Positions 550 to 55,300 of a DNA stretch of 64,000 bases are shown here, one piece after another. Position 1 is the first letter of the stretch. Each line of letters begins with the position of its first letter. Below the pieces are notes generated by a model, which had not been told where the DNA came from, searched no databases, and was given only the letters and a program-made list of their open reading frames with translations. The DNA lies in NCBI GenBank assembly GCA_052034405.1, contig JBPOIO010000004.1, forward strand, positions 64,751 through 128,750, read 5' to 3'. The position numbers and the translations under genes were made by a program. Source of the DNA: Candidatus Magasanikiibacteriota bacterium (GTDB taxonomy: Bacteria; Patescibacteriota; Patescibacteriia; Magasanikbacterales; UBA922).

Positions 550-571
550 ACATATATCATAACAAAAAAAT

Positions 572-590
572 ACAGTCTGGGGAAGACTGT
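572..590 (-). terminator. Rho-independent terminator-like hairpin (acagtct-loop-agactgt) followed by a U-run on the minus-strand RNA
   Basis: A perfect 7-bp stem with a 5-nt loop has an A-run immediately 5' on the plus strand, which is a U-run on the minus strand. It lies downstream of the GC-rich segment at 590-740 and upstream of the helicase start. Confidence 0.4.
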
Positions 591-943
591 ACCTCATATA
601 TGGAAGGGGCGGCGAGGGAACCCGAGGGCTCCCCCGCCGCGAGGTCACAACGGATCCGCCGCATACTTCTGCATGGGATCGATAGGCTCGTCGTTTCCGA
701 CGTACGACATGGACTTTTCCTCCTGTGGCAAGTCCTGAAAAAATACTTGTCTAAATATTCTTTCAGAACTTTCACAAAAAAAGAACCACCTTCCGGCAGT
801 TCATTTACATTTTTATACATGCAAACAAATCACCGGGAAAGCGATCGAAAGAAAAAGAAATAAAAATTATGTATATACTGTTTCATATACTCTTATAATA
901 TCATTTTTTTTATCAAGGTCAATATTATTCTGTGGATAAATAT

Positions 944-1822
944 CTAATCAATCAGCAACACCACAGGCTGACCATTCGACACATCTCCATCATTCCAATC
1001 ATGAATGGCATTCATCAAGTCCTGATATTTATACTTGTAATTTTGCCCAAACTGCGTCCCAGGATCGTTTGTAATAAAAGAATCTTTGGTATATCCTCGA
1101 ATTACAAGAGCATGGTAAGGAGGTCCACCGTTTTGAAAATGTGGGTTTGGCAAAGTTTTTCCGTTAGCAACCACAAGCACCGGATGACCACTCGCAATAT
1201 ATTGTTTTATTTGATCTACTGTTGGATTTTTTATAATATGCAAATTACTTGAAGTATACCCAGTCAAATATTCTGCAAATATTTTTTGTATTTTCTTTAT
1301 TTCAATACTACGCCCCCAGCCCAAATCTTCTTCCCATTTTACCATTGCAAGAATATCGTGCTTTGCAGAATCAATCGACATACTCCTATCCTGTTCATAG
1401 GCATCCATCATCAAAATTGCTGCTTCTTCGCAAGCATCTTGCCAGGGCTGATCCCAATTTTTTTCTGGAGCTTGTGGGACAAAAGGGACAGCAAGATTAA
1501 TGGAATCGGGAATTTCAAGAGCCACCGGAATAGAAACAGAAGTCGAAGAAACAGCAATTGGAGTTTGAATCGTTGAAGAGGCAAGAAATTTACTTGAAGT
1601 CACGGTTACTTTTTGTGAAGAAGTTGAAAAAACTTGAACGGCAGCGGTTGAAGTCTGAACTCTTTTTTCTATTTCAGTTCGTGAAACTGCGACAGGAATA
1701 TCTGCATTTTGTTTTGCTACAAACCATTGTTTGACATACCCACGAGCAAAATATCCTGTACCCAAAATGGCAAGGAAAATCAAAAATCCACAAATAAAGT
1801 TGAAAAATCTATATTGTTTCAT
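944..1822 (-). CDS. C39-like peptidase domain protein (Peptidase_C39_2-like), N-terminal membrane anchor
   Basis: The 292-aa product has an N-terminal hydrophobic helix, a Ser/Thr-rich linker, and a C-terminal domain with a candidate Cys (QDACEEAAILMMDAY) and His (HALVIRGY) as found in C39-like peptidase domains. Confidence 0.5.
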   Translation of the reverse strand: MKQYRFFNFICGFLIFLAILGTGYFARGYVKQWFVAKQNADIPVAVSRTEIEKRVQTSTAAVQVFSTSSQKVTVTSSKFLASSTIQTPIAVSSTSVSIPVALEIPDSINLAVPFVPQAPEKNWDQPWQDACEEAAILMMDAYEQDRSMSIDSAKHDILAMVKWEEDLGWGRSIEIKKIQKIFAEYLTGYTSSNLHIIKNPTVDQIKQYIASGHPVLVVANGKTLPNPHFQNGGPPYHALVIRGYTKDSFITNDPGTQFGQNYKYKYQDLMNAIHDWNDGDVSNGQPVVLLID

Positions 1823-1876
1823 ATGTTTTTAGTGTAGCACAAAAAAAATTGAAATGAAACCCACAGAAAAACGCAA

Positions 1877-1898
1877 AGAGGGACACAGATGTGTCCCT
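1877..1898 (-). terminator. Terminator hairpin (gagggacac-agat-gtgtccctc, 9-bp perfect stem) followed by a U-rich tract on the minus strand
   Basis: It lies directly 3' of the stop of the GC-rich minus-strand gene 1914..2417. On the minus strand the hairpin is followed by tttgcgtttttctgtgggtttcatttcaatttttttt. Confidence 0.55.
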
Positions 1899-1913
1899 CG
1901 CTCAGCGCCTTGT

Positions 1914-2417
1914 TCAGAGCGCACCCCCTTTGTGAAATGTATAACGACCACCATCGCGGGCCTGAATGTCGACCCGCGTAAAATAGCCCTCCGGCGCCCA
2001 GCCCTCCACCACATCGACGACCACCTCGGCCAAGGTCCGACGGCCAAAGAGCAGGGCCCAATCCTCACGGCTACGGACCCATGGATGCAGAGGAAAACGA
2101 TGATCTTCATCCTGAGAAAAAGAATAGAAGCTATCCCCCCAAACAGCCTCCACTCGAAACTCTGTGAAATATCCTCGTGGGGCATGCCGAATGAGGTGGC
2201 AAAGCACCTCAAAGGGCGTCATATTGGAAAATAGCGTGTGCCAGGCCTGGTGGATGGCCACACGCAGACGCTTGAGATTTTTCCTTTCATATACCTGTGG
2301 AGAATTGCTCGTAGACGTCGGCACCATGTGATGCGTGGAAAAACTATACCATTCATCAATACGATGTCCAGACCGAGCCCGCCTCGATGCCTTTTTTCGG
2401 TGTTTTGACACCTTCAC
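1914..2417 (-). CDS. Hypothetical basic protein encoded in a GC-rich (about 58% GC) island; probable start at the second GTG (2409-2411)
   Basis: The 167-aa ORF has a Lys/Arg-rich N-terminus (KHRKKASRRARSGHR). A strong SD, GGGGAGGTG, sits 5 nt before the internal GTG. A TTGACA-N17-TTCAAT promoter lies at about 2437-2472 on the minus strand, and a terminator hairpin follows directly after the stop. The base composition is unlike that of neighbouring genes. No domain was recognised. Confidence 0.45.
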   Translation of the reverse strand: MKVSKHRKKASRRARSGHRIDEWYSFSTHHMVPTSTSNSPQVYERKNLKRLRVAIHQAWHTLFSNMTPFEVLCHLIRHAPRGYFTEFRVEAVWGDSFYSFSQDEDHRFPLHPWVRSREDWALLFGRRTLAEVVVDVVEGWAPEGYFTRVDIQARDGGRYTFHKGGAL

Positions 2418-2483
2418 CTCCCCAGATTTGAAACCTTGCGAGCATTGAACGCCAAATTCTCATTCTTGTCAAGGATATATTGA

Positions 2484-3716
<1,233 letters not shown>

Positions 3717-10113: not shown

Positions 10114-10182
10114 AATTTGAGGAAGGTCAACTTGACAAAAAGGCTAAAACAAGGTATATTGCAAGCGTCTTTTTCTTGTGGA

Positions 10183-10540
10183 TGATCGCTTGAGCTTCGG
10201 CTCATGAGGAAAGTCCGAACTCCATCAAAAAGGTAGTGGGTAACGCCCACCTGCTGCATCGCGAGGTGTAGTACGGGACAGTGCCACAGAGACAATACTA
10301 CTGCAAGTTCGCTTGTAGAAAAGGTGAAAAGCGTAGGGAGGTTTTTGTCCTCGAGTCAAAAGCTACTCTACAGACGCATTTGGCGACAGATGCGTGTGGT
10401 AAACCCTACTTGGAGAAAGAGCAGCGTCCCCTTCGTAAGAAGGGTCGAAAAGTTCGCTCGTTTGAACTTGTCAGCAATGACAAGTCTAGAGAAATGATCG
10501 TCACCCGCAAGGGAACAAAATTCGGCTTAGAGCAAGAAAA
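10183..10540 (+). ncRNA. rnpB: RNase P RNA (bacterial rnpB)
   Basis: Universally conserved RNase P RNA blocks are present: GAGGAAAGTCCG (CR-I, about 10206-10217), AAGGTGAAA, and ACAAAATTCGGCTTAG (CR-V-like, about 10516-10531). The segment is GC-rich and non-coding. The overlapping track ORF 10281..10565 is therefore spurious. The end positions are approximate. Confidence 0.8.
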
Positions 10541-10547
10541 AGACAAT

Positions 10548-10580: not shown

Positions 10581-10584
10581 TTTG

Positions 10585-10672: not shown

Positions 10673-11443
10673 CTAAAATTTTCTTGTCTTTCCCACAACC
10701 ATCTGGATTTGTCCTTTTGCCAAGCGAATCTTGAGTCTTGTTTCTTTTGACTCACGACCATCGGCATCAAGTACAAATGGATGATCACTACTCACGACCA
10801 TTTCTTCAAAAGGAAAGACGCTTGGGTCTTCGTATTCGTAACCAAAGAATCTTTTCTTATGCATTGGCCGCAAAAAGGCTTCGAGCTTTCCATCTTGTGG
10901 ATGAATAGTTTGTGCCTTGCCCTTTCCATTTTTCAATGTATAAGGCTGCAAGTTACAAACCACCAATTCAAGAGCCGTATTTTTTCCACGGCTTCGTACG
11001 GCAAACTTTTCGTCATATTCAACCAAAAGCTCTGCTGGTGCGATATGAAGCTGTGAAATAAAATAGCGATTGTTCACCCAGCCGACATCTAGGTACACCT
11101 TACGGCGACGAGAGAGTGTCTCACAGGCTTCAATCCCCGTAGGGATCCCAAGTACCCCAGCAATAGTATTGTATTGCTCTCCAATAGGGAGAAAGCCAAA
11201 TAATACTTTACAGGTAGCTGCTCGAGAAAGGACATGACCAAAGGTTACATCGTTTCCGACGATTACCACGGTTTTTGCCCCCTTTTTTATCTCATCTTCA
11301 ATAACGGCCTCAGCATTCGTAAAATTCTGAAGCCTGACTATTTTACCCGCAATTCAAAAATCTGTCAAGCGGGTCTCGATAGTCATCATAATAGAGTCAA
11401 AGCGCTTTTCTTTGAGGTAATTGTCGTAGAGATAAACGTACAT
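10673..11443 (-). pseudogene. Diacylglycerol-kinase-catalytic-domain (YegS/BmrU/DagK) family gene interrupted by an in-frame TGA at 11354..11356; catalytic GGDGT motif degenerate (GNDVT)
   Basis: Read through the stop, the product is MYVYLYDNYLKEKRFDSIMMTIETRLTDF*IAGKIVRLQNFTNAEAVIEDEIKKGAKTVVIVGNDVTFGHVLSRAATCKVLFGFLPIGEQYNTIAGVLGIP.... This aligns with the DAGK_cat N-terminus (IIYNP...VAGGDGT...IPMGTVNDF), but the key glycines are replaced. Only the part after the TGA (10673..11269) appears in the ORF track, as a GTG-start ORF. Confidence 0.6.
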
Positions 11444-24482: not shown

Positions 24483-25286
24483 ATGCTCTGGTATTTCGTG
24501 TCCGCGGGTCTCGGCATTCTCGCCGGGATCCTAATCGGTAAAGCCCTGCAAAAGCGGGGCGAACCACAACGGATCGATGAAGCCATCGACAATGCAATCA
24601 AGACAGAGCGGGCCGAAGTCCGCAAGAAGGAAGAAGCAAATCTCCAAACGAGCCACCACGAGGTGGCGAAGTTCCTGAGCAACCACATCAAAGATCCAGG
24701 AGTAACCTGGGACATTGTAGAACTCTACAACGTCCGCAGCAAGATCAGCCTACGCCTGCTCCTCGGACTCGGGCAAGATAGCCCGATTCTGCTGACGGCA
24801 ATCCTGGCTTCCCACCCCAGCGGAGCTGACGGAACTTTCTTCAGGATGGCGCGCCCGGCGAATATGAGTTCGCCTCCGAATCTGATCACTCCACAACCCG
24901 ACTGGGATGTTGGGATTGCTCAGATCCGCCAGAAGATTCTGATTGTCCCGCAGATCCTGATGTTCAGTGTGATTCCTCGTGCCTACAGGCAAGCACAGTC
25001 CGAAAGCATGAAGACACAGATGAACCCAGGTCTCGGAATGCCACAGGCCTCTTCGCCACCGGCAACGCCCAACGACGAACCCACCCCCGAACTGGTTGTG
25101 GTCGAACCCAGCGCAGCGGCGCAGCGACTGGAAGACGCCGATCCTGACGTCCAGGCCCGCGCAACAGCTGCCCTGACCGAAGCCAAGGCAGCGCATCCTA
25201 TCCCCCCCGCCGACACGGCCCCAGCCGAGACCGAGGCGCCGCGCCCCGAACGCAAGACTCTGGCCTGGACCCCCAAGGGGGGCTGA
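24483..25286 (+). CDS. Hypothetical membrane-anchored protein with a Pro/Ala-rich C-terminal tail, encoded in a GC-rich (about 60% GC) island
   Basis: This is the track ORF 24444..25286, with the likely start at the internal ATG (MLWYFVSAGLGILAGILIGKAL, a TM helix). It has GC-rich third codon positions, an SD-like AAGGGGGTG 4 nt upstream, and a possible TTGACT-N16-TAGGGT promoter. The tail is PPATPNDEPTPELVVVEPSAAAQRLEDADPDVQARATAALTEAKAAHPIPPADTAPAETEAPRPERK. No domain was recognised. My nucleotide reading and the track frame differ by 1 nt near 25260. Confidence 0.45.
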   Translation: MLWYFVSAGLGILAGILIGKALQKRGEPQRIDEAIDNAIKTERAEVRKKEEANLQTSHHEVAKFLSNHIKDPGVTWDIVELYNVRSKISLRLLLGLGQDSPILLTAILASHPSGADGTFFRMARPANMSSPPNLITPQPDWDVGIAQIRQKILIVPQILMFSVIPRAYRQAQSESMKTQMNPGLGMPQASSPPATPNDEPTPELVVVEPSAAAQRLEDADPDVQARATAALTEAKAAHPIPPADTAPAETEAPRPERKTLAWTPKGG

Positions 25287-40682: not shown

Positions 40683-42205
<1,523 letters not shown>

Positions 42206-42601
42206 TGAAAAGTAAAATAGTAAACTATCTTACAGATGTAAATCCCCAAATAAATGGGGCTTGAGATCTTGATAAATCTATAGACTCTTGTTTTGTATTC
42301 TTTCGAATACGGGTTCTTGTCACATTTTTATTGTGAATTTTTTACATTTTTGTTTCCTTACCTTTTTGTTGCATTTTGGTTGTATTCAATTGTAGAGAAC
42401 GCTTTCTCGAACGAGCCAAGAAAGAAAAAAGAGAAACCAATATATGTTCAGTTGCTCTTTTTTCTATCCTAGTTTTCTGCATTTGCAGAGCCTTGAGGAA
42501 GGGAGTTTTTTAAGTTGTAGCTCTTCTTGTTTTGTGGCCGTATTGTATATGAAGAATTATCCCCTGTCAAGTGCTGCTATTTTTGAAAAACTGTGGATAA
42601 G

Positions 42602-43381: not shown

Positions 43382-46300
43382 TTAAAGAGAATTGAGCACC
43401 GAGCGAGTTCCAGGACCTACAATTCCAAGATCTTCAAGGCCATGAGCACGCTGAAATGCTTTTACAGCTTCGACAGTCACAGGTCCATATAGTCCTGTTG
43501 TTTCATGATTGAAAAATCCTTGGGAAGCCAATATTTTTTGGAGGGCTTCTACTTCGCTGCCACTATCATTGAGAACAAGTGAATGTGTAAAAGTAAAACC
43601 CGAAGAAAGTGTCTGTCTATTGGGCAACAAAGAAGACTCTTCTCCAATTTGAGTTCCATCTCCATAAATGCTTGAAGCAGGAAGACGAATAATACGATCG
43701 GTTCTATAATTTAAACTTTTCCAAGCTGATTCACTCGCAATATAACGTTTCAGAAAAATTGAACTGTCTGCCACACTTGGTTCAAGAAAATACAAACGAG
43801 GAGAGTCTGCATACCCAATCACACTCAAAGCAGGTGCTTCGTTTTTTGAAATGACATCACCTTCTGCAAACATATCCAAAAGTTCCTGCGCTACATCTTC
43901 TACATAATTCCACTCAAAACCAAGACTCTTGAATATTTCTTCACTCGTAATAACGTGTTTTTTACCATTTACCAACAAATAAACATTTGGATCAGATACC
44001 ACTTTCATAAGAGTTCCATTTTGTGGAGCATATCGAGGACCCCGTGGCATAAATCCAAGTGCATCATCTGGAATATTTGCCAAATCTGCTTTTGGAACTA
44101 CCTGGACATCACTCCAAGAAGCAAAATAACTAAAGAATATTGGAGATGCTTTAAATGCACGTTTTGTACATGAACCTTCTATTGGCTGACCATCTTTGTT
44201 GTAAGGTGGAGTAATATAGTACACAGCATTTGAGTCGGGAGATTTGTAAGGACGACCCAAGTGTAAAGAACAACTTGTCATACTATGCAGCAACTGAATG
44301 CTCGCACTCGTGTCAAAAACACCTCCTGATTTTGAACGAAATCGTACGTATACGGTCTTTGGTCCATCTCCAAATGGAAGCGCCCAGACAGAACTGGTAG
44401 TAAATGTTTGGAAGGTTGCATCACTAAAATCAGGATTATTTGAAATTGCAACAAAAGATGCATTTACGATATTAAACTGCATATGTACCATACGAGAGAA
44501 TGTTTGCTTTGCTCCATTATTGATAAACACTGGAAGGAGTTCTTGTATTTCTGTAAAAGTAAATTTTGGATTTTTACCAAGCAAACCATCATACACAACA
44601 CGAAGATCAGGAATTCCATTTTTATCCGTATCCAAAATTTGAGCAATGTCTTTTTTCAAATGAACAACAATTGGCTCTGATTCAATAACAAGTACAGCCT
44701 CATCAGCACTTGCAGATACACGAATCACACGGTGAGAAGATGAAGGAAAATTGAGAGATTCACTATCTTTTGTCGTAAATACAATAGAGATATCACTCTC
44801 TCCGTTATTACTCAAAAGCGGAACGAGAGGAACACTTGGAATAGTCATAGCCCCTCCACCACCTCCAGCTTTTATAGGATCGCTCACAGCATCATTATCT
44901 GTAATATGTGCTGTTATATCTGCAATCACAATACCATTATATGAGATATCTGCAGAAAGTGCCGTTGCGGTAAGAGTACTTGTATGAGCACCCTCATCGA
45001 CAGCATCATCTACTGCAGTAACAGTCACTTCTACTGGAATGTTCCAACGATCTGGAGTAAAAGTAATACTGGTTGTAGAAAGCGTTGATTGTGCATCTGA
45101 AGCGAGCGTAACAACTACATCCGCTGTAGGAGTAGAACCAAGCACAAGAGTATAGCTATCGCTCGATCCAGCTTCAGAAATATCAGTCGAAGCAACACTC
45201 TCTACTACATTTATTCCAACTCCATCGTCATCAATATTTGTGACACTTACGTCATCAGGATTGAGTGCATTATAATGTGCATCTCCAGAAACTGCAGCAT
45301 CCAAAACTATACTAAAATCAATATCTCCATCATCAAAATAATCATCAACTCCGCTTACGGTTATAGTTCGTGGAATATTCCAATCTGCAGGCCCAAAAAC
45401 AAGAGTGCTGCTATTCACTGTTCCCTCTGTTAAATCCGAACTTGAAAGAGTTGTTGTTACAGGACCACTTGGCTCAGAATTCAAAACAAGTGTAAAAGTA
45501 GCCGTTGTTCCTGCTTCACTGGTATCTCCAGAAATAAGAGATACAGTAAATCCAGCAATATCATTATCGGTAATATGAGCAGTCACATCAACAATCGCAA
45601 GACCATTATAATTTGCATCGAGTGAAGAAGCACTTGCTGTAATTGTAGAGTCATGAGGATCTTCGACACTATCATCATTGAAAGCGCTTACTGTAATTGT
45701 TTGAGCAACATTCCAATTTGTAGAAGTGAAAACAATACTACTGGTTGAAACCGTCGACTGTGCATCTGGAGTTATTGTAATAGTGACATCATTTATTGGT
45801 TCTGTATCAAGCACAAGTGTATAGCTATCTGTTGCTCCACCTTCTGTAATATTTGTTGCTCCACCACTTTGGGTAAGACTTATTCCAGCAACATCATTAT
45901 CTGTATTTAGAGCATCTACATCACTGGCATTGAGTCCATCATAGTTATCATCAGTTGAACTTGCAACGCCATTTACAAGAGAATAGTTGATGGGACCATC
46001 CGCAATCAAATCATCAACTCCAGTTACAGTAACTGTTTGTGGGATATTCCAATTGAGTACTGTAAAAGTAAGCAAAGCTTGATCCACAGTAGCTTCACTT
46101 GCATCTGAACTTGATACTGAAATAAAGACATCATCTCTTGGTTCTGAATCCAAAACTACAGTATAGGTAGAAGTTGTTCCGCTTTCACTGGTATCACCAG
46201 AAATAGCAGAAACAGTAATACCTGCAGTATCATTATCTGTAACATTTGCGATTACATCACTTGTTGCAATAAGGTCATAGTTGATATCGAGAGAACTTAC

Positions 46301-49300
46301 GGTATGAGTAATTGTAGAAATATGCAACCCTTGGCTCACAGCATCATCGACAGCAGTAGTTGTTACTACACGTGGGATATTCCAATTGGCAATATTAAAC
46401 ACCAGAGAACTTGTCGAAATTGTTGAGGCCGCATCCGAAGTAATTTCAATTGTTACGTCTGCAAGAGGAAGTGCATTTAATACAATGGTATAAGAATCTT
46501 CAACACCACCTTCGGTAATATCAGTTGTTCCAAGTGACTCTGTCACTGTTACGCCTGGAGTATCGTTATCAATAACATTTGCCGTTAAATCAGCAATAGC
46601 AATTGCATTGTACGCTGCATCGAGAGAATCTGCGCTGTGAGTAATCACACTTGTATGTGGTCCTTCTACATCCGCATCGTCTTCTGCCATAACGCTTACA
46701 GATACAGGGATATTCCAAGTCGAACTGCTAAAGCTAATAGAAGTTGTTGAAAGTGTCGACTCCGCATCAGGAGTAAGCGTAATAGTAACATCCGAACTTG
46801 GCTTGGAATTCAATACAATAGTGTAGCTATCGCTAGCTCCCCCTTCGGCAATATTTGTCGTATCCGCACTTTGAGCAAGGGTCACTCCAGCGCTATCATT
46901 ATCGGTGATATGTGCCGTAATATCTGCCACCACAATAGCATCATACCCAGGATCAGTACTGGTAACACTGTGTGTCAGTGTAGAGTCATGAGCTCCCTCG
47001 GCAACAAGATCATTTACCGCCGTTACAGTAATAGTTTGGGCGATATTCCAAGTGCTGGTAGTAAATTGAATGGAACTTGTTGAAAGTGTCGCCTCTGCAT
47101 CTGCTGCAATATGCACAAAAACAGTATCCAAAGGTTCTGAACTCAAAACAATTGTATAACTATCTGTAACACCAGCTTCAGTAATATTTGTAGTACCAGC
47201 TGATTCTGTCAGAACCACACTATTACTATCATTATCTGTAATATGTGCTGTTAAATTTGGGATAATCACAGCATTATACTGCACATCATCTGACGATACA
47301 GTCTGAGTAATTGTTGAATCATGCGCTCCTTCTGTAAGACTATCATCTACAGCAGTCACAGTAATTGTCTGTGCAATATTCCAAGTTGTACTTGTAAAAA
47401 TAATACTCGAAGTCGAAAGTGTACTTTGTGCATCTGAAGTTAGAGTAATGCCCACAGTAGAACTTGGCTCAGAAGTAAGCACCAGTGTATAACTATCTGT
47501 AGCCCCACCCTCTGTAATATTTGTAGCAGCCGCTGACTCTGTCAAAGTTATCCCAACATTATCATTGTCTGTAACATTTGCAATAACATCAGGAATAGCC
47601 AAAGCATCGTAGGCTGGGTCAGTACTCGTCACACTATGAGCAATAACAGAGTTATGTCCTCCCTCAGCAAGATGATCATTCACAGCAGTCACGCTAATAG
47701 TTTTTGCAATATTCCAAGTGCTCGTTGTAAATATAATACTTGAAGTAGAAACTATACTCTGTGCATCTGAGGTAATATTTATTGACACGTCCCCTGTTGG
47801 CTGTGAGTTGAGTACCAAAGTATAGCTATCACCCGCAGCACCCTCTGTAATATCGGTTGTTCCCGCAGATTCTACAAGAGTAATTCCTACGCTGTCGTCA
47901 TCGCTATTGGTAACAGATACATCAGCAGGATTAAGTCCCGCATAGTGAACATCTGTAGAACTTGCAGTATCAAGAATTATACTATAGGCAATATCTCCGT
48001 CGACCAAATCATCATCAACACCCGTAACAGTCACCGTACGAGGCAAATTCCAAGAAGCAGCATCAAAAACTAAAGTACTGGTATTGATCGTTCCCTCTGT
48101 TGTATCCGAACTATGTACTGTTGTGGTGACTGTGCCACTTGGAGGACTATCAAGAACAACCGTAAAAGTAGCAGTACCCCCCGCCTCTGTTGTGTCCCCA
48201 GAAATAAGAGAAACAGTAAACCCAGCAGCATCATTGTCGCTTACATTTGCAATCACACTATCAATCGCAATTCCATCATATCCAAGGTCAGTAGAAGTTG
48301 CTGTATGTGTAATCGTACTGGTATGGTCACCTTCGGCAATAGCATCGTTAAGCGCTGTCACCGTAATAGTCTGAGCAATGTTCCAATTCAAAGGGGTAAA
48401 TACAATAGAACTTGTTGAGATTGTACTTTGAGCATCAGGACTCAAACTCAGAGCAACATTTCCTGTTGGCTCTGAATTCAATACAATCGTATAACTATCT
48501 GTTCCTCCCCCTTCGCTAATATCCGTTGTTCCTGCAGATTCGCTAATAGTCACTCCAACACTATCATTATCTATATTGGTTACAGATACATCTGCTGGAT
48601 CAAACCCATCATAATTCAAGTCTGTTGAAGTTGCTGTATCCAAAATTATCGAATAATCAATATTACCATCAACAAGAGCATCGTCCACACCTGTCACTGT
48701 CACCGTTCGAACAAAATCCCAATCATCCGGACTAAATACAAGGGTAGAGGTATTTATAGTTCCTTCTGTAGTATCAGAACTATGTACTGTTGTAGTTACA
48801 ATTCCTGTAGGAGGAGTACTCAAAACAACCGTAAAGGTTGCTGTACCACCAGCTTCTGTCGTACTCGCAGAAATGAGTGATACAGTAAATCCTGCTGTGT
48901 CATTGTCTATGACATTTGCTACCACATCCACAATAGCAATACCATCATATCCTGGATCAGTTGAGGTAACAGAGTGAGTAATCGTTGAAAAATGAGCCCC
49001 TTCATCAAATATATCATCGACCGCAGTAATTGTAAGAGTCTGAGCTACATTCCAATTTATTGGAGTAAAAACAATACTCGAAGTAGAAATAGTCGAGTCT
49101 ACATCAGCACTTAGACTCACAGCAACATCTCCTGTTGGTTGCGAATTCAAAACAATCGTATAACTATCTGTCGCTCCACCTTCTGTAATATCTGTCGTTC
49201 CTCCTGACTCAACAAGAGTTATCCCAACAACATCATTATCAATATTTGTAACAGCAACATCTGATGGATTTATTCCAGCATAGTTGACATCGTCCGTTGA

Positions 49301-52300
49301 AGTCGCCGTATCCAAGATAATTGAATAATTGATATTCCCATCTGCCAAAATATCGTCTACCCCAGTAACCGTCACAGTTCGTGCCAAATTCCAAGATCCA
49401 GGACTAAATACCAAAGTTGAAGTTGTAATCGTTCCTTCTGTTATATCACTACTATGAATCGTTGTGGTTACAATTCCTGTAGGAGCTGCATCCAAAACAA
49501 CCGTAAAGGTTGCAGTACCACCAGCTTCTGTCGTACTCGCAGAAATGAGCGATACAGTAAATCCTGCTGTGTCATTGTCTGTAATATTTGCGGTGACAGA
49601 CCCAATCATAATACCATCGTAAGCACCATCGGTACTGGTTGCACTATGAGTAAGGGTGCTCGTATGGGCTCCTTCAACTACAGCATCATTTACAGCGGTT
49701 ACAGTAATAGTTTGTGCGGTATCCCAATTTGCTGGAGTAAAGACAATACTACTGGTAGACACAGTGGCATCAGCATCAGCACTCACACTAATTGCAACAT
49801 TCCCTGTTGGTTGAGTATTCAAAACAATGGTATATGAGTCTGTTGCTCCGCCTTCTGTAATATCTGTTGTCCCTGCAGACTCGGTCACTGTCACTCCAAT
49901 AGTGTCGTTATCTGTATTTGTAACATTGACATCATTTGGGTTTATTCCTGCATAATTTACATCCACAGTAGACGTTGCAGTATCAAGAATAATTGTATAT
50001 GCAATATCACCATCACTCACAAAATCATCGACTCCGGTCACGGTCACGGTTCGAGGAATGTTCCAGTCATTGGAATGAAATACGAGTGTACTGGTAGTAA
50101 TCGTACCTTCAGTTGTATCACTACTGTGAATAGTGGTCGTCACAACTCCACTTGGCTCAGAATTTAATACCACAGTAAAAGTAGCAGTAGCACCAGCTTC
50201 ACTTGTATTTCCAGAAATCGCAGAGACGGTAAATCCAGCAGTGTCGTTATCCGTTACGGTGGCAACCACATCTCCAACCGCAATACCCTCATACCCCTCA
50301 TCCGTACTTGTGACGGTATGGGTAATGGTACTACTATGTTCACCCTGTTGAACGGCATCATCAACCGCTGTCACAGTGACGGTTCGTGCCACATTCCAAT
50401 TTGAAGTTTGAAAGGTAATACTACTGGTTGAAAGAGTTGACTCGCCATCTGTATTAAGATGAATTGCTACATTTCCCGTAGGCTGAGTATTCAAGACAAT
50501 AGTATAGGTATCAGTAGCTCCCCCTTCGGTAACATCCGTTGTACCGTCAGATTCTACTAAAGTCACGCCAGCACTATCATTGTCAAGATTGACCAACATA
50601 TTTACATCATCTGGATTCATACCATCGTAATTTGGATCTGTCGAAGTTGCAATATCCAAAATAACACTATTTGGCTGATTTCCATCATCAATATCATCAT
50701 CAACACCCGTCACAATCACAGTTCGGGTAAGATTCCAATCCTCAGGACTAAAAACCAAAGTACTTGTATTGATTGAATGTTCTGTCGCATCAAGAACATG
50801 AACGGTTGTAGTGACAATTCCTGAAGGCTCCGAAGTCAAAACAACAGTAAACGTTGATGTAGTTCCGGCTTCACTCGTATCACCCGAGATAGCAGAGACG
50901 TCAAATCCTGCAGTATCATTATCTGTAATATTAGCAGTTACATTTGGAAGAACAAAAGCATCGTATCCAGGATCTGTTGAGGTAACCGTATGGGTGATTG
51001 TAGTTGTATGTCCCCCTTCTGCAATAGCATCATCAACAGCTGTAACCGTAATAGTTTGGGCCACATTCCAATTCGCAGGAGTAAAGACAATACTACTCGT
51101 AGAAAGAGTAGATTCCGCATCTGGAGAAATACTTACCGCAACATGAGCACTTGGCTCTGTATCAAGTACAAGTGTATAACTATCCGTTGCTCCACCCTCT
51201 GTAATATTTGTTGCTTCAAAAGATTCTACAAGAGTAATACCTGCAGTATCATTATCGGTATTTGTAACAGATACATCAGCAGGATTCATACCACTATAAG
51301 TAAGATCCGTACTTGTAGCACTATCCAAAATTATAGAATAAGCAACATCTCCATCATCAACACTATCATCAACGCCAGTAACTGTCACCGTACGAGGCAA
51401 ATTCCAAGAGTCAGCATCAAAAACCAAAGTACTCGTGTTGATCGTTCCCTCTGTGGTATCCGAACTATACACCGTTGTCGTTACACTTGCACTTGGTTGA
51501 CTATCAAGAACAACAGTAAAAGTAGCAGTCCCACCAAATTCACTCGTATTTCCAGAAATTGCTGATACTGTAAATCCCGCTGTGTCATTGTCTGTAATAT
51601 TGGCAGTCACACTCGCAACAGCAATTCCATCATAATTTGCATTGGTACTAGTCACAGTATGCGTAATAACACAAGTATGTCCACCTTCTACAACACTATC
51701 ATCCACAGCTGTAGCAGTAACCGTTACCGCTCTATTCCAGTTTCCAGAAGTAAAAGAAATAGAACTTGTCGAAACAGTACATTCTGTATCAGAAACAAGA
51801 GCAATGTTGACGGTTCCTGTTGGAGCACTTGTCAACAGCAAAGTATAGGAATCTGTCAAACCTGCTTCGCTTATATCAGTAGTTCCCCCACTTTGAGTCA
51901 CTGTTACTCCTGCGCTATCATTGTCTGTAATATTAGCAGTAACCGAAGCAATTACAATAGCATTGTAATCACTGTCAGTACTCGTAGCACTATGCGTAAT
52001 AGTAGCACTGTGCAAACTCTCTGAATAGTCATCGTCAACAGCTGTCACTGTGATAGTTTGTGCAACATTCCAATTTGCAAGAGTAAATACAATACTTGAT
52101 GTTGAAAAAGAAACCTGTGAATCCGATGCGATATTTACAAAAACATTTCCTGTTGGTAAAGAGTTCAGTACTATAGTATAGGTATCTGTAGCAGCAGCTT
52201 CTGTAACATTGGTAGAACCAGCACTTTGACTGATCGTAACCCCCGCAGAGGCAGGAGCTTCGTTATCCGTATTTGTTACAGAAACATCCAAAGGGTTTAT

Positions 52301-55300
52301 TCCATTATAATTTGGATCACTACTGGTCGCAGTGTCAAGAATAATACTATACGCAATATCACCGTCTACATCAGCATCATCAACACCAGTAACAGTCACC
52401 GTACGAGGCAAATTCCAAGAAGTAGCATCAAAAACCAAAGTACTGGTATTGACTGTTCCCTCTGTGATATCCGAACTATGCACAGTAGTAGTCACAGTAC
52501 CTGTAGGTTGACTGGTGAGTACCACGGTAAAAGTAGCAGCCCCACCAACTTCACTGGTATTTCCAGAAATTGCTGATACCGTAAATCCAGCCGTATCATT
52601 GTCTGTAACACTCGCGACAACACTTGAAATTGGTATGGCATTATAGGTTCCGTCAGTAGACGTCGCACTATGTGTAAGTGTACTTGTATGTCCTCCCTCG
52701 ACCACACTATCATCCACCGCTGTTACCACAATCGTTTGTGCAGTATTCCAATTTGCTGTTGTAAAAACAATACTCGAAGTCGAAAGCGTACTTTGAGCAT
52801 CTGCAGAAATATTCACAAAAACACTATCTGTTGGCTGCGAATTCAATACCATAGTATAGGTATCAGTCGCCGTTCCTTCGGTAATATTTGTTGTTCCAGC
52901 ACTCTCGGTCACTGTTACTCCAGCAGTATCATTGTCAGTATTTGTAACAGATACATTATTTGGATTTACCCCATCATAATTTGGATCACTACTCGTCGCA
53001 GTGTCCAAAATTATTGAATAAGAAATATCTCCGTCATCTACACTATCGTCTACTCCAGTAACCGTCACCGTACGAGGCAAATTCCAAGAAGCTGCATTGA
53101 AAACCAAAGTACTGGTATTGATCGTTCCCTCTGTAGTATCCGAACTATGCACGGTAGTAGTTACAGTACCTGTAGGTTGACTAGTGAGTACGACGGTAAA
53201 TGTTGCTGTTGCACCAGTTTCAATCGTATCACCAGAAATTTCCGATACCGTAAACCCAGCAGTATCATTATCTGTAATATTTACGGTTTCACTTGCAATA
53301 CTAATATTATTAAAAGTACTATCCGTAGAGCTTGCAGTATGAGTAATCGTACTACTATGACTTCCTTCTGCAATACTATCATTGACGGCGCTTACAGTAA
53401 TTGTTTGGGCAGTACTCCAATTTGAAGTACTAAAGACAATACTCGAAGTAGAAAGTGTTGTTTGTGAATCAGCTGTTAGAGTAACCTCAACATTTCCTGT
53501 CGGACGATAATTGAGTACCACCGTATATGTATCAGTCGTACCCGCTTCACTGACATCTGTAGAACCACTCGAAGCATCAATAGAGACAGCCGGAGTACTT
53601 GTCGGAGGAGATTCCCAAGCTGCATAATCATAGGTATAAGTGCTTTCATTTGTTTCATTTCCTGTACCAACAGTAAATAAATTCGTTCCAAGAGCCGTAA
53701 TTTTACTCGCAGCATTAGCAGTACTTATAAAATATTGAGAATTTCCATCGGTTAAATTGTTTGCCAAAAACATACCCGCACGTGCAGTTCCCCCACTACG
53801 TTTTTTCACCCACACCAAATCTGGATCATTCCCTATACCCGTCACATCATGAGCAATTCCAGTACCTGTATAAGTTCCAACAGAAAAATAACTACTCGCA
53901 GCAAAAGCGAACCAATAACAAATTTCATTAACAGTATTTACTTCATATGGTTGAACAGCAATACCAACCTGAAAAGAATGATCTCCAATACTTTGAATCA
54001 TATCCGCTTGTGCAGCAACAGCATGGAACGCATTTGTCAAATCTCCACTCATGGCTGATGTTCTCCAAGAAGCAATACTCAAAGCTGGTGAATCTTTTAC
54101 AACAACCAAATCTGGAGTAAAAGGAAGACGATAAATATCACGAGAGTCAACCCCACTTCCAGTATAGGCACCAATGGCAAAATCTTTTGCCCCGCTATTT
54201 GAATCAGAGTCCCAAGCATTTCCAAAAGCTTCCCAATAAAACACAACCCCAGTATTATTCGCGTTTAGATTAGTACCAATACTAAATCCATCGTTATCAA
54301 TAGATGTAATAAGTGCAGCAATAGCGGCTCCATTATAACCAAGATAAAATGATTTATCACCAGGAACATTACTCGTACGAAAAAAAGCATATGCAGCATT
54401 AGCAGCTTTAACAATAACGAGATCTGGCTTGAACCCCAGCCCTGTTACAGAAAGTGCACTTCCAGTACCCGTATAAGTACCGCTTGCATAGCGATAAGTA
54501 CCACTAGTACTTGGAGCCGCAGCTCCACCAAAAGAGGCATAATACATAGGGGCACCACTTCCATTTACCGAAGAAAATGTTCCTACTTTGAATCCCCCCG
54601 TTGAAGTTTGCTCCCGAAAATATTTTCCTCCTGCCGCAGCATCTGTAAAAGCAACCGAAAAATTTCCACGATCAAAGGTAGCAACTCCTGCAGCCGCTGC
54701 ATTGGTGGAATTTTTCATGAAAGTAAAATCTGATTGAAAGGTAAGCCCTGCGTCGTCACTGGAACTAATAGTTTTATTTGCTCCAGTTCCAGTATAGGTA
54801 CCCACATCCATGGCACCAGCAACCTGTTTGAATGCAAAAAAGTAAAAAGTATGCCCACTTCGATTGGCATTATTCCCAGTTCCTACCGTAAAACCACTTG
54901 CATCAAGTGTTTTGATCATTTGTCCCCCTGTATCAGCAGCAGCCGCATGAAAATAGTTATTTTCATTGGCACCCATAGAAGACGATTTCCAAATAGCGGC
55001 AACAGTAGAAGCATCACGAGTCACCACCAAATCAGGTTGAAAACCTGTATTAATACTTTGTGCAGCACCGGTTCCAGAATATGTTCCCACACAAAAAGTT
55101 CCACTCGCTGTACAATCAGAACCACCAAAAGCAACCCATTCCCAGCGCACACCAGAAGTATTTACATTGGCGCCAGAACTCAAGGTAAATCCATCCGCAT
55201 CAAGAGTAATCAAGGTACTCGTATCATTCGCCGATGTCCCTGCAAAAAGTTGACTATGACTTGCAGGCATGGCAGAGGACTTTACCACCATACCAACACC

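Follow-up and report, generated by a model that had tools for sequence, protein, structure and literature searches.

A GC-rich, Shine-Dalgarno-led HNH-like gene beside tgt in Magasanikbacteria: probably an old, often lost single-gene cassette

A GC-rich island between tgt and a C39-like peptidase gene in a Candidatus Magasanikiibacteriota bacterium is probably an autonomous single-gene HNH cassette, old and often lost, whose product is predicted to be an accessory endonuclease of a selfish or defensive kind. The island lies in a 64,000-nucleotide stretch of contig JBPOIO010000004.1 (positions 64,751 to 128,750), which was analysed at full length and is called the window here. An initial annotation took the codon usage and unusual composition of the gene as a sign of recent horizontal acquisition, possibly from a phage or high-GC host, and noted its strong Shine-Dalgarno (SD) sequence and its private expression signals. 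The cassette is instead old yet dispensable, and its site, flanked by tgt and the C39-like gene (tgt|C39), is a variable slot of Magasanikbacteria. Its history is mostly vertical, with frequent loss and occasional exchange among close relatives. Atypical GC and the SD are traits of the family and of the orthologues, and hence provide no evidence for recent import. The case corrects a tempting 'foreign gene' call, as unusual GC, a strong SD and separate expression signals can be passed down stably within a gene family. Composition-based detection of horizontal transfer would misfire on this gene.

Gene structure and expression signals

The gene is monocistronic, lies on the minus strand and most likely spans 1914..2411. 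An open reading frame had been given as 1914..2417 (-) with 167 aa; the frame exists, but initiation at the GTG of 2411, giving 165 aa, is preferred. A length of 165 aa is also that of the public protein P0001, for which an exact-sequence look-up gave no match, and the orthologues begin MSK.... A start at 2417 would overlap the SD, the GGAGG core of which (2421..2417) lies upstream of the preferred GTG with 5 nt between them. The cassette and its signals are as follows.

1868..2481, minus strand: entire cassette from promoter through terminator (about 614 bp), which makes up the additional sequence separating the tgt promoter from the C39-like gene
1914..2411, minus strand: coding sequence of the predicted stand-alone HNH-like protein, 165 aa, preferred GTG start at 2411
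2467..2472, minus strand: -35 hexamer TTGACA, by sequence reading; identical in the orthologous loci L001 and L003
2444..2449, minus strand: -10-like hexamer TTCAAT, 17 nt past the -35, by sequence reading; kept in L001 and L003
2415..2423, minus strand: Shine-Dalgarno sequence GGGGAGGTG, by duplex energy with the 16S tail
1868..1899, minus strand: intrinsic terminator GAGGGACAC-atct-GTGTCCCTC, 9-bp stem and 4-nt loop (1899..1878), then TTTGCGTTTT, by terminator scan
2482..2510, plus strand: divergent tgt promoter TTGAAT-N17-TAGACT (context), back-to-back with the cassette promoter

The earlier reading of a complete, autonomous gene is borne out by this set of its own -35/-10, SD and intrinsic terminator. 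The TTGACA-N17-TTCAAT promoter is present as described, and its -35 becomes TTGACC in the orthologous loci L002, L008 and L009. A consensus promoter scan did not list it, TTCAAT having no A at position 2. Judged from the position of the -10, the mRNA leader would be roughly 26 nt long. The 9-bp hairpin after the stop, also described before, was recovered together with a T-run by the terminator scan and is kept in L001 and L003. The 165-aa reading frame is under purifying selection, with a dN/dS of 0.12-0.20 between the window and L001 and L003.

The GC content was first put at about 58%, an overestimate of the measured 53.6% (GC1/2/3 of the coding sequence 0.61/0.46/0.54; peak of 0.64 in a 150-nt interval). 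The claim that composition and translation signals are atypical for the genome nevertheless stands. Against the 50 other genes of the window, the gene has a GC z of 5.2 and a GC3 z of 5.1; the GC3 of those genes is 0.269 +/- 0.053, with a maximum of 0.40. The rise in GC3 has sharp borders at the gene. Duplex formation between its SD and the 16S tail is worth -14.7 kcal/mol versus a mean of -0.8 kcal/mol over 52 window genes, only 3 of which reach -6 or lower, so that the SD is indeed unusual among genes that are almost all SD-less. GATCACCTCCTTTC is retained in the 16S rRNA.

A predicted HNH core and a duplicated module

No known domain had been recognised in the protein. Remote homology and structure modelling now place it in the HNH/His-Me finger superfamily as a predicted member, through a transitive link. 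The basic N-terminus reported earlier is indeed present, and the nucleic-acid binding read from it is plausible as a prediction from sequence. Four segments can be distinguished.

2361..2411, minus strand: basic N-terminal tail, residues 1-17, MSKHRKKASRRARSGHR, by translation; low model confidence (pLDDT 56-58 for residues 1-20)
2229..2342, minus strand: predicted HNH beta-beta-alpha-metal core, residues 24-61, with H27/H28/N45/H54/H58, by conservation and AF2 model
2106..2255, minus strand: repeat 1, alpha-alpha-beta-beta module, residues 53-102, its first helix being the predicted HNH metal-binding helix
1923..2072, minus strand: repeat 2, alpha-alpha-beta-beta module, residues 114-163, with the histidines replaced (EDWA for HQAWH)

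The full-length AF2 model (pLDDT 88.6, pTM 0.82) sets the secondary structure of the core as strands 24-28 and 46-50 followed by a helix at 51-61. H28, H54 and H58 do not vary among 40 full-length family members, in which H27 and N45 show conservation of at least 90%; the same HH..N..H..H pattern is found in 50 short members. A 63-residue sub-model of the core (pLDDT 92.8) returns a Foldseek list made up mostly of HNH nucleases, each with a weak E of at least 0.33. The best of these fold matches are the NmeCas9 HNH domain (TMq 0.58), ColE7/E9 and Gme HNH, and the sub-model superimposes on ColE7 with an rmsd of 1.7 A at 32% identity. Neither the PDB nor a set of viral structures (BFVD) gave a significant fold match to the full-length model.

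Pfam and NCBIfam models, including PF01844 and PF14279, give no significant match to the window protein or to the 40 members of the full-length family. The HNH link is transitive and runs through the short relatives. Profiles of the full-length (A2) and short (A3) families align in hhalign at 99.7% and E = 1.5e-25. Short relatives (n = 50) match Pfam HNH in 13 cases, HNH_5 in 9, NCBIfam IscB in 11 and HlpB in 7, and their profile matches PDB HNH domains of IscB (E = 0.0024), McrA and ColE7. A PDB sequence search with the full-length profiles found nothing meaningful, a weak match to the 53BP1 Tudor domain not being significant. The window protein matches phrog_16870 (E = 0.0032).

Repeats 1 and 2 align with each other in hhalign at 99.1% and E = 1.8e-18 over 49 columns. 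The duplicated module might form an extended, pseudo-dimeric surface for contacts with DNA. The protein would bind DNA and nick or cleave it, with H28 as the predicted general base and with H27, H54 and H58 holding a divalent metal. A predicted fold and a likely chemistry are thereby given to an unannotated family, the members of which are called 'hypothetical protein' or 'uncharacterized protein' in public records, where they are named at all.

A profile search collects 339 family representatives at E <= 1e-3, and the informatively named homologue records are all from CPR bacteria. In other CPR lineages the family members occupy unrelated contexts. A conserved operon partner was considered and rejected, as the neighbours differ in L004, L005 and L010-L012. 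Phage origin was likewise rejected: tblastn found no match in 50,697 phage records, no homologue was found in viral contigs, and BFVD gave no significant fold match. No high-GC homologues were found.

A variable slot beside tgt

The slot is occupied in 8 independent assemblies, the window and L001, L002, L003, L006, L007, L008 and L009, in the order tgt <-> gene -> C39-like peptidase -> UvrD helicase. The immediate neighbours of the gene are thus tgt and the C39-like peptidase gene. The tgt of these orthologous loci is 62-94% identical to that of the window, and the most divergent loci reach only 62-71%. The distance from the C39-like gene start to the tgt start is 694 bp in the window.

Relatives sampled through tgt present a different picture. 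The gene is absent at this locus in all 8 of them, in a small presence/absence sample in which the HNH-positive loci had been found by searching for the gene itself, and its absence there indicates that it is dispensable. Six of the slots (L060, L061, L064-L067) are without a gene, L063 holds an unrelated gene, and L062 holds a two-gene pair, one member of which weakly matches a HigB-like toxin. The corresponding start-to-start distance is 36-254 bp in L060, L061 and L063-L067 and 607 bp in L062. By tblastn, no remnant of the HNH gene was found in these 8 relatives. A TTGATT-N17-TAGTAT-type promoter lies directly upstream of tgt in the empty slots of L060, L061, L064 and L065. A variable accessory slot adjoining tgt is thereby identified in Magasanikbacteria.

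The HNH and tgt trees agree at deep nodes (support 98%/100% and 84%), and the gene evolves fast relative to tgt. Within the clade of the window, L001 and L003, the gene departs from its flanks in similarity and dS, in keeping with an exchange of alleles. The window and L003 are 93-99% identical over 2345..1745 and about 85-88% identical in the flanks, with a dS of 0.24 in the gene versus 0.59-0.70 in the flanks; L001 displays the opposite pattern of gene and flank similarity. Searches for hallmarks of mobility found no integrase, a single tRNA at 10584 and short border repeats at chance level. Flanking repeats or a target-site duplication were therefore rejected, the matches being at chance level only.

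Composition, SD and mRNA structure as family traits

Excess GC3 is a regular feature of the orthologues (0.52-0.62 versus 0.22-0.46 in neighbouring genes), with L002 as the exception. Across the wider family, 25 of 29 members exceed their neighbours in GC3 (mean +0.124, p = 1.3e-5). The SD is stronger than that of the neighbours in 27 of 32 members, with medians of -9.9 and -3.3 (p = 1.5e-6). Folding of the mRNA follows the same pattern, with a mean z of -2.3 in 8 orthologues versus +0.2 in neighbouring genes (p = 2.6e-4). In the window, the mRNA folds better than its shuffles at z = -3.05 including the terminator and z = -2.2 for the coding sequence alone. L002, the sole orthologue without excess GC, also has an unstructured mRNA. 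The initial annotation had held that similar-GC homologues universal in related AT-rich genomes would speak for conserved function; such homologues recur but are not universal, as 0 of the 8 tgt-sampled relatives carry the gene.

As a separate observation, GC3 remains high across divergences at which synonymous sites are saturated. GC-biased gene conversion from a hot spot was considered as a source of the high GC3 and rejected, given that no GC3 gradient extends into tgt or the C39-like gene and that the edges are sharp. The link between SD, excess GC3 and mRNA structure is reproducible in near SD-less genomes, and could be used to study start-site choice in CPR bacteria.

Origin and role

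A recent import from a phage or high-GC host, its composition still unameliorated, is largely refuted and now very improbable. It would account for GC and GC3 about 5 SD above the window genes, for an SD, promoter and terminator unlike those of the neighbours, and for the lack of the gene in every one of the 8 relatives sampled through tgt. Relatives whose tgt is only 62-71% identical, however, have the gene in this very slot and with the same excess of GC3, and the HNH and tgt trees are congruent at deep nodes. Informatively named homologues are all CPR and none is from a phage, the borders are free of flanking repeats, integrase and tRNA, and the GC3 excess is family-wide over many host genomes. 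Hardly credible at all is the proposal that the 165-aa frame is incidental and the island in fact a structured RNA, an antisense gene or an overlapping gene, or that it is an assembly mis-join. The folding of the mRNA relative to shuffles is in line with a structured RNA, and L006, L008 and L009 have no stop in the codon-aligned antisense frame. Against both stand purifying selection on the sense frame and a protein family with a confident fold. A structured RNA was rejected because Rfam returns no match at gathering score or even at E <= 1, and an antisense or overlapping gene because composition accounts for the open frame (P = 0.04-0.58, not significant after correction). A chimeric assembly, raised as a concern in the initial annotation, is contradicted by identical junctions that recur in independent assemblies.

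An accessory selfish or defensive endonuclease, with nuclease activity predicted, is most likely and is preferred over a housekeeping enzyme. Such a nuclease, unguarded by an immunity partner, would be toxic if it were neither specific nor tightly regulated. In a selfish form, which is unlikely when taken singly, the protein would be a free-standing homing endonuclease that cuts the empty tgt|C39 allele, with repair copying the cassette in ('intronless homing'). Homing would account for a constant slot with patchy occupancy and for a cassette that carries its own expression signals. It is consistent with an HNH core whose catalytic residues are intact, with strict reuse of one intergenic slot that has occupied and empty alleles, and with evolution that is fast relative to tgt. 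The high-identity tract of the window and L003 runs past the gene into the terminator and the C39 start, like a co-conversion tract, and a 165-aa monomer with extra modules resembles I-HmuI-type HNH homing enzymes in size. At deep nodes, however, the HNH tree follows the tgt tree, which fits vertical descent and loss alone; this agreement argues against frequent horizontal spread and so weakens the selfish reading. The degenerate copies that homing predicts were not seen in the tgt-sampled slots, and family members in other CPR lineages lie in unrelated contexts. Fold searches returned neither I-HmuI nor other homing enzymes, and only 1 of 40 members matches a PHROG 'homing endonuclease', weakly. 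The gene is also GC-rich, whereas homing genes are usually AT-rich.

A single-gene defence nuclease of the type IV restriction/McrA kind, acting against foreign (e.g., modified) DNA from an accessory hot spot, is doubtful to a like degree. An HNH protein without a methylase or immunity partner has the architecture of McrA, which is among the PDB matches of the short family, and the C-terminal module might serve in recognition. The patchy distribution of the gene and its rapid evolution are in keeping with defence, as is the L062 slot, where a pair with a weak HigB-like toxin match is typical accessory or defence cargo. PADLOC matches none of 40 members, however; there is no recognisable modified-base reader domain, and the 13 contexts inspected reveal no clustering with other defence genes. 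A housekeeping factor in DNA repair or recombination, like Bacillus subtilis HlpB/YisB and acting with the nearby UvrD/PcrA-type helicase, is less probable again. HlpB is a stand-alone HNH-like DNA binder tied genetically to the AddAB helicase-nuclease (PMC3765158), the NCBIfam HlpB model (NF058586) is weakly matched by the 7 short relatives mentioned above (best E 2.9e-4), and a gene for a UvrD-family helicase follows at a distance of 1-2 genes downstream, in the same orientation. All 8 tgt-sampled relatives nevertheless lack the gene at the locus and retain UvrD, so the HNH gene is not required with UvrD. Neither the window protein nor any of 40 full-length members matches the HlpB model at E <= 1, and a terminator separates the gene from the genes downstream.

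Resemblance to known systems

The gene product, as modelled, shares with the ColE7/E9 DNases and the HNH domains of Cas9 and IscB the beta-beta-alpha-metal topology, the HH that ends strand 1, the Asn before strand 2 and the H-x3-H of the helix. The spacing of N45/H54/H58 (9 and 4 residues) equals that of ColE9 N118/H127/H131. The protein differs from these nucleases in having no Zn-ribbon cysteines and no immunity partner, in not being part of a larger effector, and in its unique duplicated alpha-alpha-beta-beta extension. Free-standing HNH homing endonuclease genes are exemplified by the phage T4 mob genes and by the I-HmuI type. Like the cassette, homing genes lie between conserved genes with a promoter and a terminator to themselves, come in occupied and empty alleles and show a local tract of discordant similarity; unlike them, the cassette is GC-rich, has a deep vertical signal and resides in a CPR bacterial chromosome, and no homing enzyme is among its sequence or fold matches. 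With McrA type IV restriction enzymes the gene has in common a single-gene HNH design without a partner. In contrast to McrA, its HNH is N-terminal, and it has no known modified-base reader domain and no PADLOC match.

HlpB is the closest characterised stand-alone relative, with DNA binding and no cleavage shown (PMC3765158). According to that paper, which cites Pediaditakis 2012, HlpB binds DNA in both single- and double-stranded form together with divalent cations (PMC3765158). HlpB/YisB resembles the gene product as a small stand-alone HNH-like protein, and its model is weakly matched by the short relatives. HlpB, however, has about 100 aa, is conserved and is essential unless addAB is deleted, whereas the protein described here has 165 aa, a duplicated module and a patchy distribution.

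The SD of the cassette has a partial counterpart in rpsU of Flavobacteriia, where the anti-SD is likewise kept, almost no genes have an SD and very few have an extended one. In Flavobacterium, the SD of rpsU gives conditional, autoregulated translation (PMC9976891, PMC7797042, PMC13000453). The lineage and the gene are different, however, and the SD here accompanies a GC-rich structured mRNA.

A possible SD-dependent expression mode

The GC-rich, structured, SD-led design might reflect a working way of expressing the gene and not a scar of its history. A GC-rich structured mRNA could not use the SD-less, short-leader initiation of the genome and would depend on the SD. A bolder proposal, that the cassette has an SD-only expression mode and, compatibly, is the first free-standing HNH homing element in CPR chromosomes, is rather unlikely. 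If true, a few genes would be translated through SD pairing alone in CPR genomes that elsewhere start without SDs but retain the anti-SD, and a nuclease that may be toxic could be expressed conditionally or at a throttled level, by analogy with the rpsU/bS21 circuit of Flavobacteriia. The HNH cassette may belong to a small SD-paired set in the window, together with the genes at 24483-25286 and 10673-11269 and a mini-ORF at 651-716.

A GC-rich gene with private expression signals

The initial annotation placed a GC-rich, foreign-looking gene at 1914..2417 on the minus strand. The ORF is confirmed, but its start is likely the GTG at 2411 rather than 2417, because the GGAGG core then lies 5 nt upstream, the public protein P0001 is likewise 165 aa long and orthologues begin MSK.... 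Its GC content is 53.6% (GC1/2/3 = 0.61/0.46/0.54) instead of the roughly 58% first reported; the richest 150-nt window has 0.64. The whole window has 39.7% GC, and relative to 50 other window genes (GC3 0.269 ± 0.053, maximum 0.40) the gene stands out in both GC (z = 5.2) and GC3 (z = 5.1). The Shine-Dalgarno (SD) sequence is as exceptional as proposed: it pairs with the 16S rRNA tail at -14.7 kcal/mol, when the mean of 52 genes is -0.8 and only 3 of the 52 reach -6. The TTGACA-N17-TTCAAT promoter is present at 2472..2444 (-) and conserved in the related loci L001 and L003, although a consensus promoter scan does not accept its TTCAAT hexamer; a scan recovers the terminator at 1899..1868 (-), also conserved in relatives. 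Apart from GC value and start codon, these observations were largely right.

An HNH-superfamily protein

The product lies within the HNH superfamily and is notable for its expression and composition syndrome. No Pfam or NCBIfam model matches it significantly, and a word-indexed search finds only three proteins. Searching 1.84 billion representatives by profile yields 339 relatives at E <= 1e-3 (47 at E <= 1e-10). The full-length ones number about 40 (roughly 160-175 aa), and many of the rest span 70-110 aa and match residues 24-75 only. Across the 40 full-length members H28, H54, H58, P66, F122 and W138 are invariant and H27, N45, W57, F61 and E68 nearly so. The short members share the consensus HHxxPxSRGGxxxxxNIxxxxxxxHxAWHxLFxNxTPxE, and 50 of them include matches to Pfam HNH (13/50) and HNH_5 (9/50) and to NCBIfam IscB (11/50) and HlpB (7/50). 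Their profile matches the HNH domain of IscB in the PDB (E = 0.0024), along with McrA, a group II intron maturase, Cas8f-HNH and ColE7, and aligns with the full-length profile at 99.7% (E = 1.5e-25).

AF2 models the protein with confidence (pLDDT 88.6, pTM 0.82), placing strands 24-28 and 46-50 before helix 51-61, the beta-beta-alpha-metal order. The full-length model has no significant fold match in PDB or viral structures. A 63-residue sub-model (pLDDT 92.8) matches mostly HNH nucleases (NmeCas9 HNH, ColE7/E9, Gme HNH, Cap5, retron HNH) with weak E-values, unsurprising given how small the motif is. Residues 53-102 are duplicated in tandem as residues 114-163 (hhalign 99.1%, E = 1.8e-18), and the second copy has lost the histidines. 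The repeat hairpin carries the motif W(A/S)PxGYFxxVxI (window 1923-1990, residues about 131-152), and its likeness to the 53BP1 tandem Tudor is not significant (whole-sequence E = 0.039, domain E about 5). Pfam SPDY/DUF317 is matched by 6/50 short members in alignment A3 (e.g. P0041; best E = 6e-7) and 1/40 full-length members, a hint of kinship between this Streptomyces 'domain of unknown function' and the HNH helix module.

Locus history

L001, L002, L003 and L006-L009 share the arrangement tgt <-> gene -> C39-like peptidase -> UvrD-type helicase, at 62-94% identity to the window in tgt and 33-93% in the HNH protein; tgt homologue names and record labels assign these genomes to Candidatus Magasanikbacteria. 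At all of these loci except L002, GC3 is 0.52-0.62 in the gene and 0.22-0.46 in its neighbours. Neighbor-joining trees of HNH and tgt are congruent in their deep branching. The HNH tree unites the window clade with L006 at 98%, a grouping that falls inside a 100% clade of the tgt tree; the tgt tree joins L007, L008 and L009 at 84%, and the HNH tree places these three together with L002 at 52%. The recent horizontal acquisition originally suggested is therefore wrong, ruled out by the shared slot between tgt and the peptidase gene, GC3 in relatives and deep tree agreement; slot and trees also rule out an assembly mis-join. The MAGs of L003, L004, L005 and L007 are labelled 'uncultured Gammaproteobacteria bacterium'. 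These look like mislabels, since gene order and tgt identity (62-93%) in L003 and L007 match Magasanikbacteria-type loci.

Eight further relatives were sampled by tgt alone (69-88% identity). In six of them the slot contains no gene, with gaps of 36-172 bp, and none of the eight retains an HNH remnant there. L062 (2993-3497) instead holds a two-gene pair, one with a weak HigB-like toxin match, and L063 (2773-3246) an unrelated AT-rich 157-aa gene, so the slot looks like an accessory-gene hot spot. Because HNH-positive and HNH-negative lineages are interspersed in the tgt tree, the simplest reading is ancestral presence followed by repeated loss. The gene has also undergone local allele exchange. 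Window and L003 are 93-99% identical over 2345..1745 and about 85-88% in the flanks, and dS is 0.24 for the gene but 0.59-0.70 for the flanks; for L001 the pattern is inverted (66-79% identity, dS 1.41).

Composition and translation initiation

The syndrome extends across the family. In a survey of 38 distinct members, taken from loci in genomes and metagenomes, 25/29 have a GC3 above the mean of their neighbours (mean +0.124, Wilcoxon p = 1.3e-5), and 27/32 have a stronger SD than the median of neighbouring genes under the same start-picking rule (p = 1.5e-6; median energies -9.9 and -3.3). GC3 does not decay into the flanks of the HNH gene. An overlapping antisense gene is rejected, the open antisense frame being as predicted from composition.

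Other GC-rich or SD-led features, and further features of the window
551-751: small GC-rich island
716..651 (-): SD-led mini-ORF, 21 aa, in the C39-like/UvrD intergenic region (546-944)
10170-10545: RNase P RNA, found in the same RNA search as 16S
10673-11269 (-): third SD-led gene, 198 aa, SD AAGGGGGC, -10.0 kcal/mol
24483-25286 (+): second protein-coding GC-rich island, terminator-like hairpins to about 25430
40684-42209: 16S rRNA, GC-rich stretch
43382-55555 (-): single 4057-aa ORF, GC2 = 0.50

Coding mRNAs of eight orthologues are more structured than dinucleotide shuffles (mean z = -2.3), compared with +0.2 for 16 neighbour-gene segments (Mann-Whitney p = 2.6e-4). The unstructured orthologue, L002, is also the one that lacks excess GC. 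In the window, the mRNAs of the two further SD-led genes are strongly structured too, with z of -5.0 for 24483-25286 and -4.4 for 10673-11269; 9/10 control genes fall between +0.4 and -1.3, and the malic enzyme gene has -3.4.

The genome is almost SD-less, with ribosomal-protein genes at about 0 kcal/mol, yet the 16S rRNA (3' end near 40684) retains the anti-SD CACCTCCTT and its tail still carries GATCACCTCCTTTC. A structured, GC-rich mRNA is probably unable to use the SD-less, short-leader initiation that this genome typically employs and would then depend on an SD. Flavobacterium rpsU offers the nearest parallel, a case of SD-led genes being a rarity in an SD-blind genome (PMC9976891; PMC7797042; PMC13000453). 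In many window genes a -10-like box lies just a few nt upstream of the ATG (e.g. TACACTaaaaacatATG, TAGACTtggactatATG), a spacing suggestive of mRNAs with no leader or a very short one.

Function

The catalytic residues are intact and the gene is under purifying selection (dN/dS 0.12-0.20; tgt, the malic enzyme gene and queA have 0.04-0.08), both of which point to an active, metal-dependent protein that binds or cuts DNA. Patchy distribution, private expression signals, fast evolution and the toxin-like pair in a relative's slot favour an accessory role, either selfish and homing-type or single-gene defence, over a less likely housekeeping role of the HlpB kind (PMC3765158). Vertical signal at deep nodes and the lack of decayed copies speak against homing; the lack of any PADLOC match and of a reader domain speaks against known types of defence.

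Other SD-led features

The 24483-25286 gene (GC 0.60; GC3 0.67, z = 7.6) has the SD AAGGGGGTG at -13.7 kcal/mol. Its 267-aa product has no Pfam match; by eye, the N-terminus includes a hydrophobic segment and the tail is rich in Pro/Ala. Homologues are confined to close relatives (70-100% identity), and L013 has the gene in the same place, flanked by iPGM and RuvX. The 10673-11269 gene, its product likewise without a Pfam match, adjoins tRNA-Leu(GAG) and RNase P RNA.

The C39-like/UvrD intergenic region is 93% identical to L003 (7440-7880), except for about 45 nt forming the body of the mini-ORF, which are almost wholly different (MSYVGNDEPIDPMQKYAADPL in the window, MTVGRPYDHDAEPSFTADPF in L003). 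The SD (within a GGACTT/AAGTCC hairpin), ATG and C-terminal ADP(L/F) are conserved, as are two further hairpins, one GC-rich and one terminator-like with T7; L006 and L009 lack the stretch. The mini-ORF may encode a hypervariable peptide, or it may serve uvrD as an attenuator-like leader.
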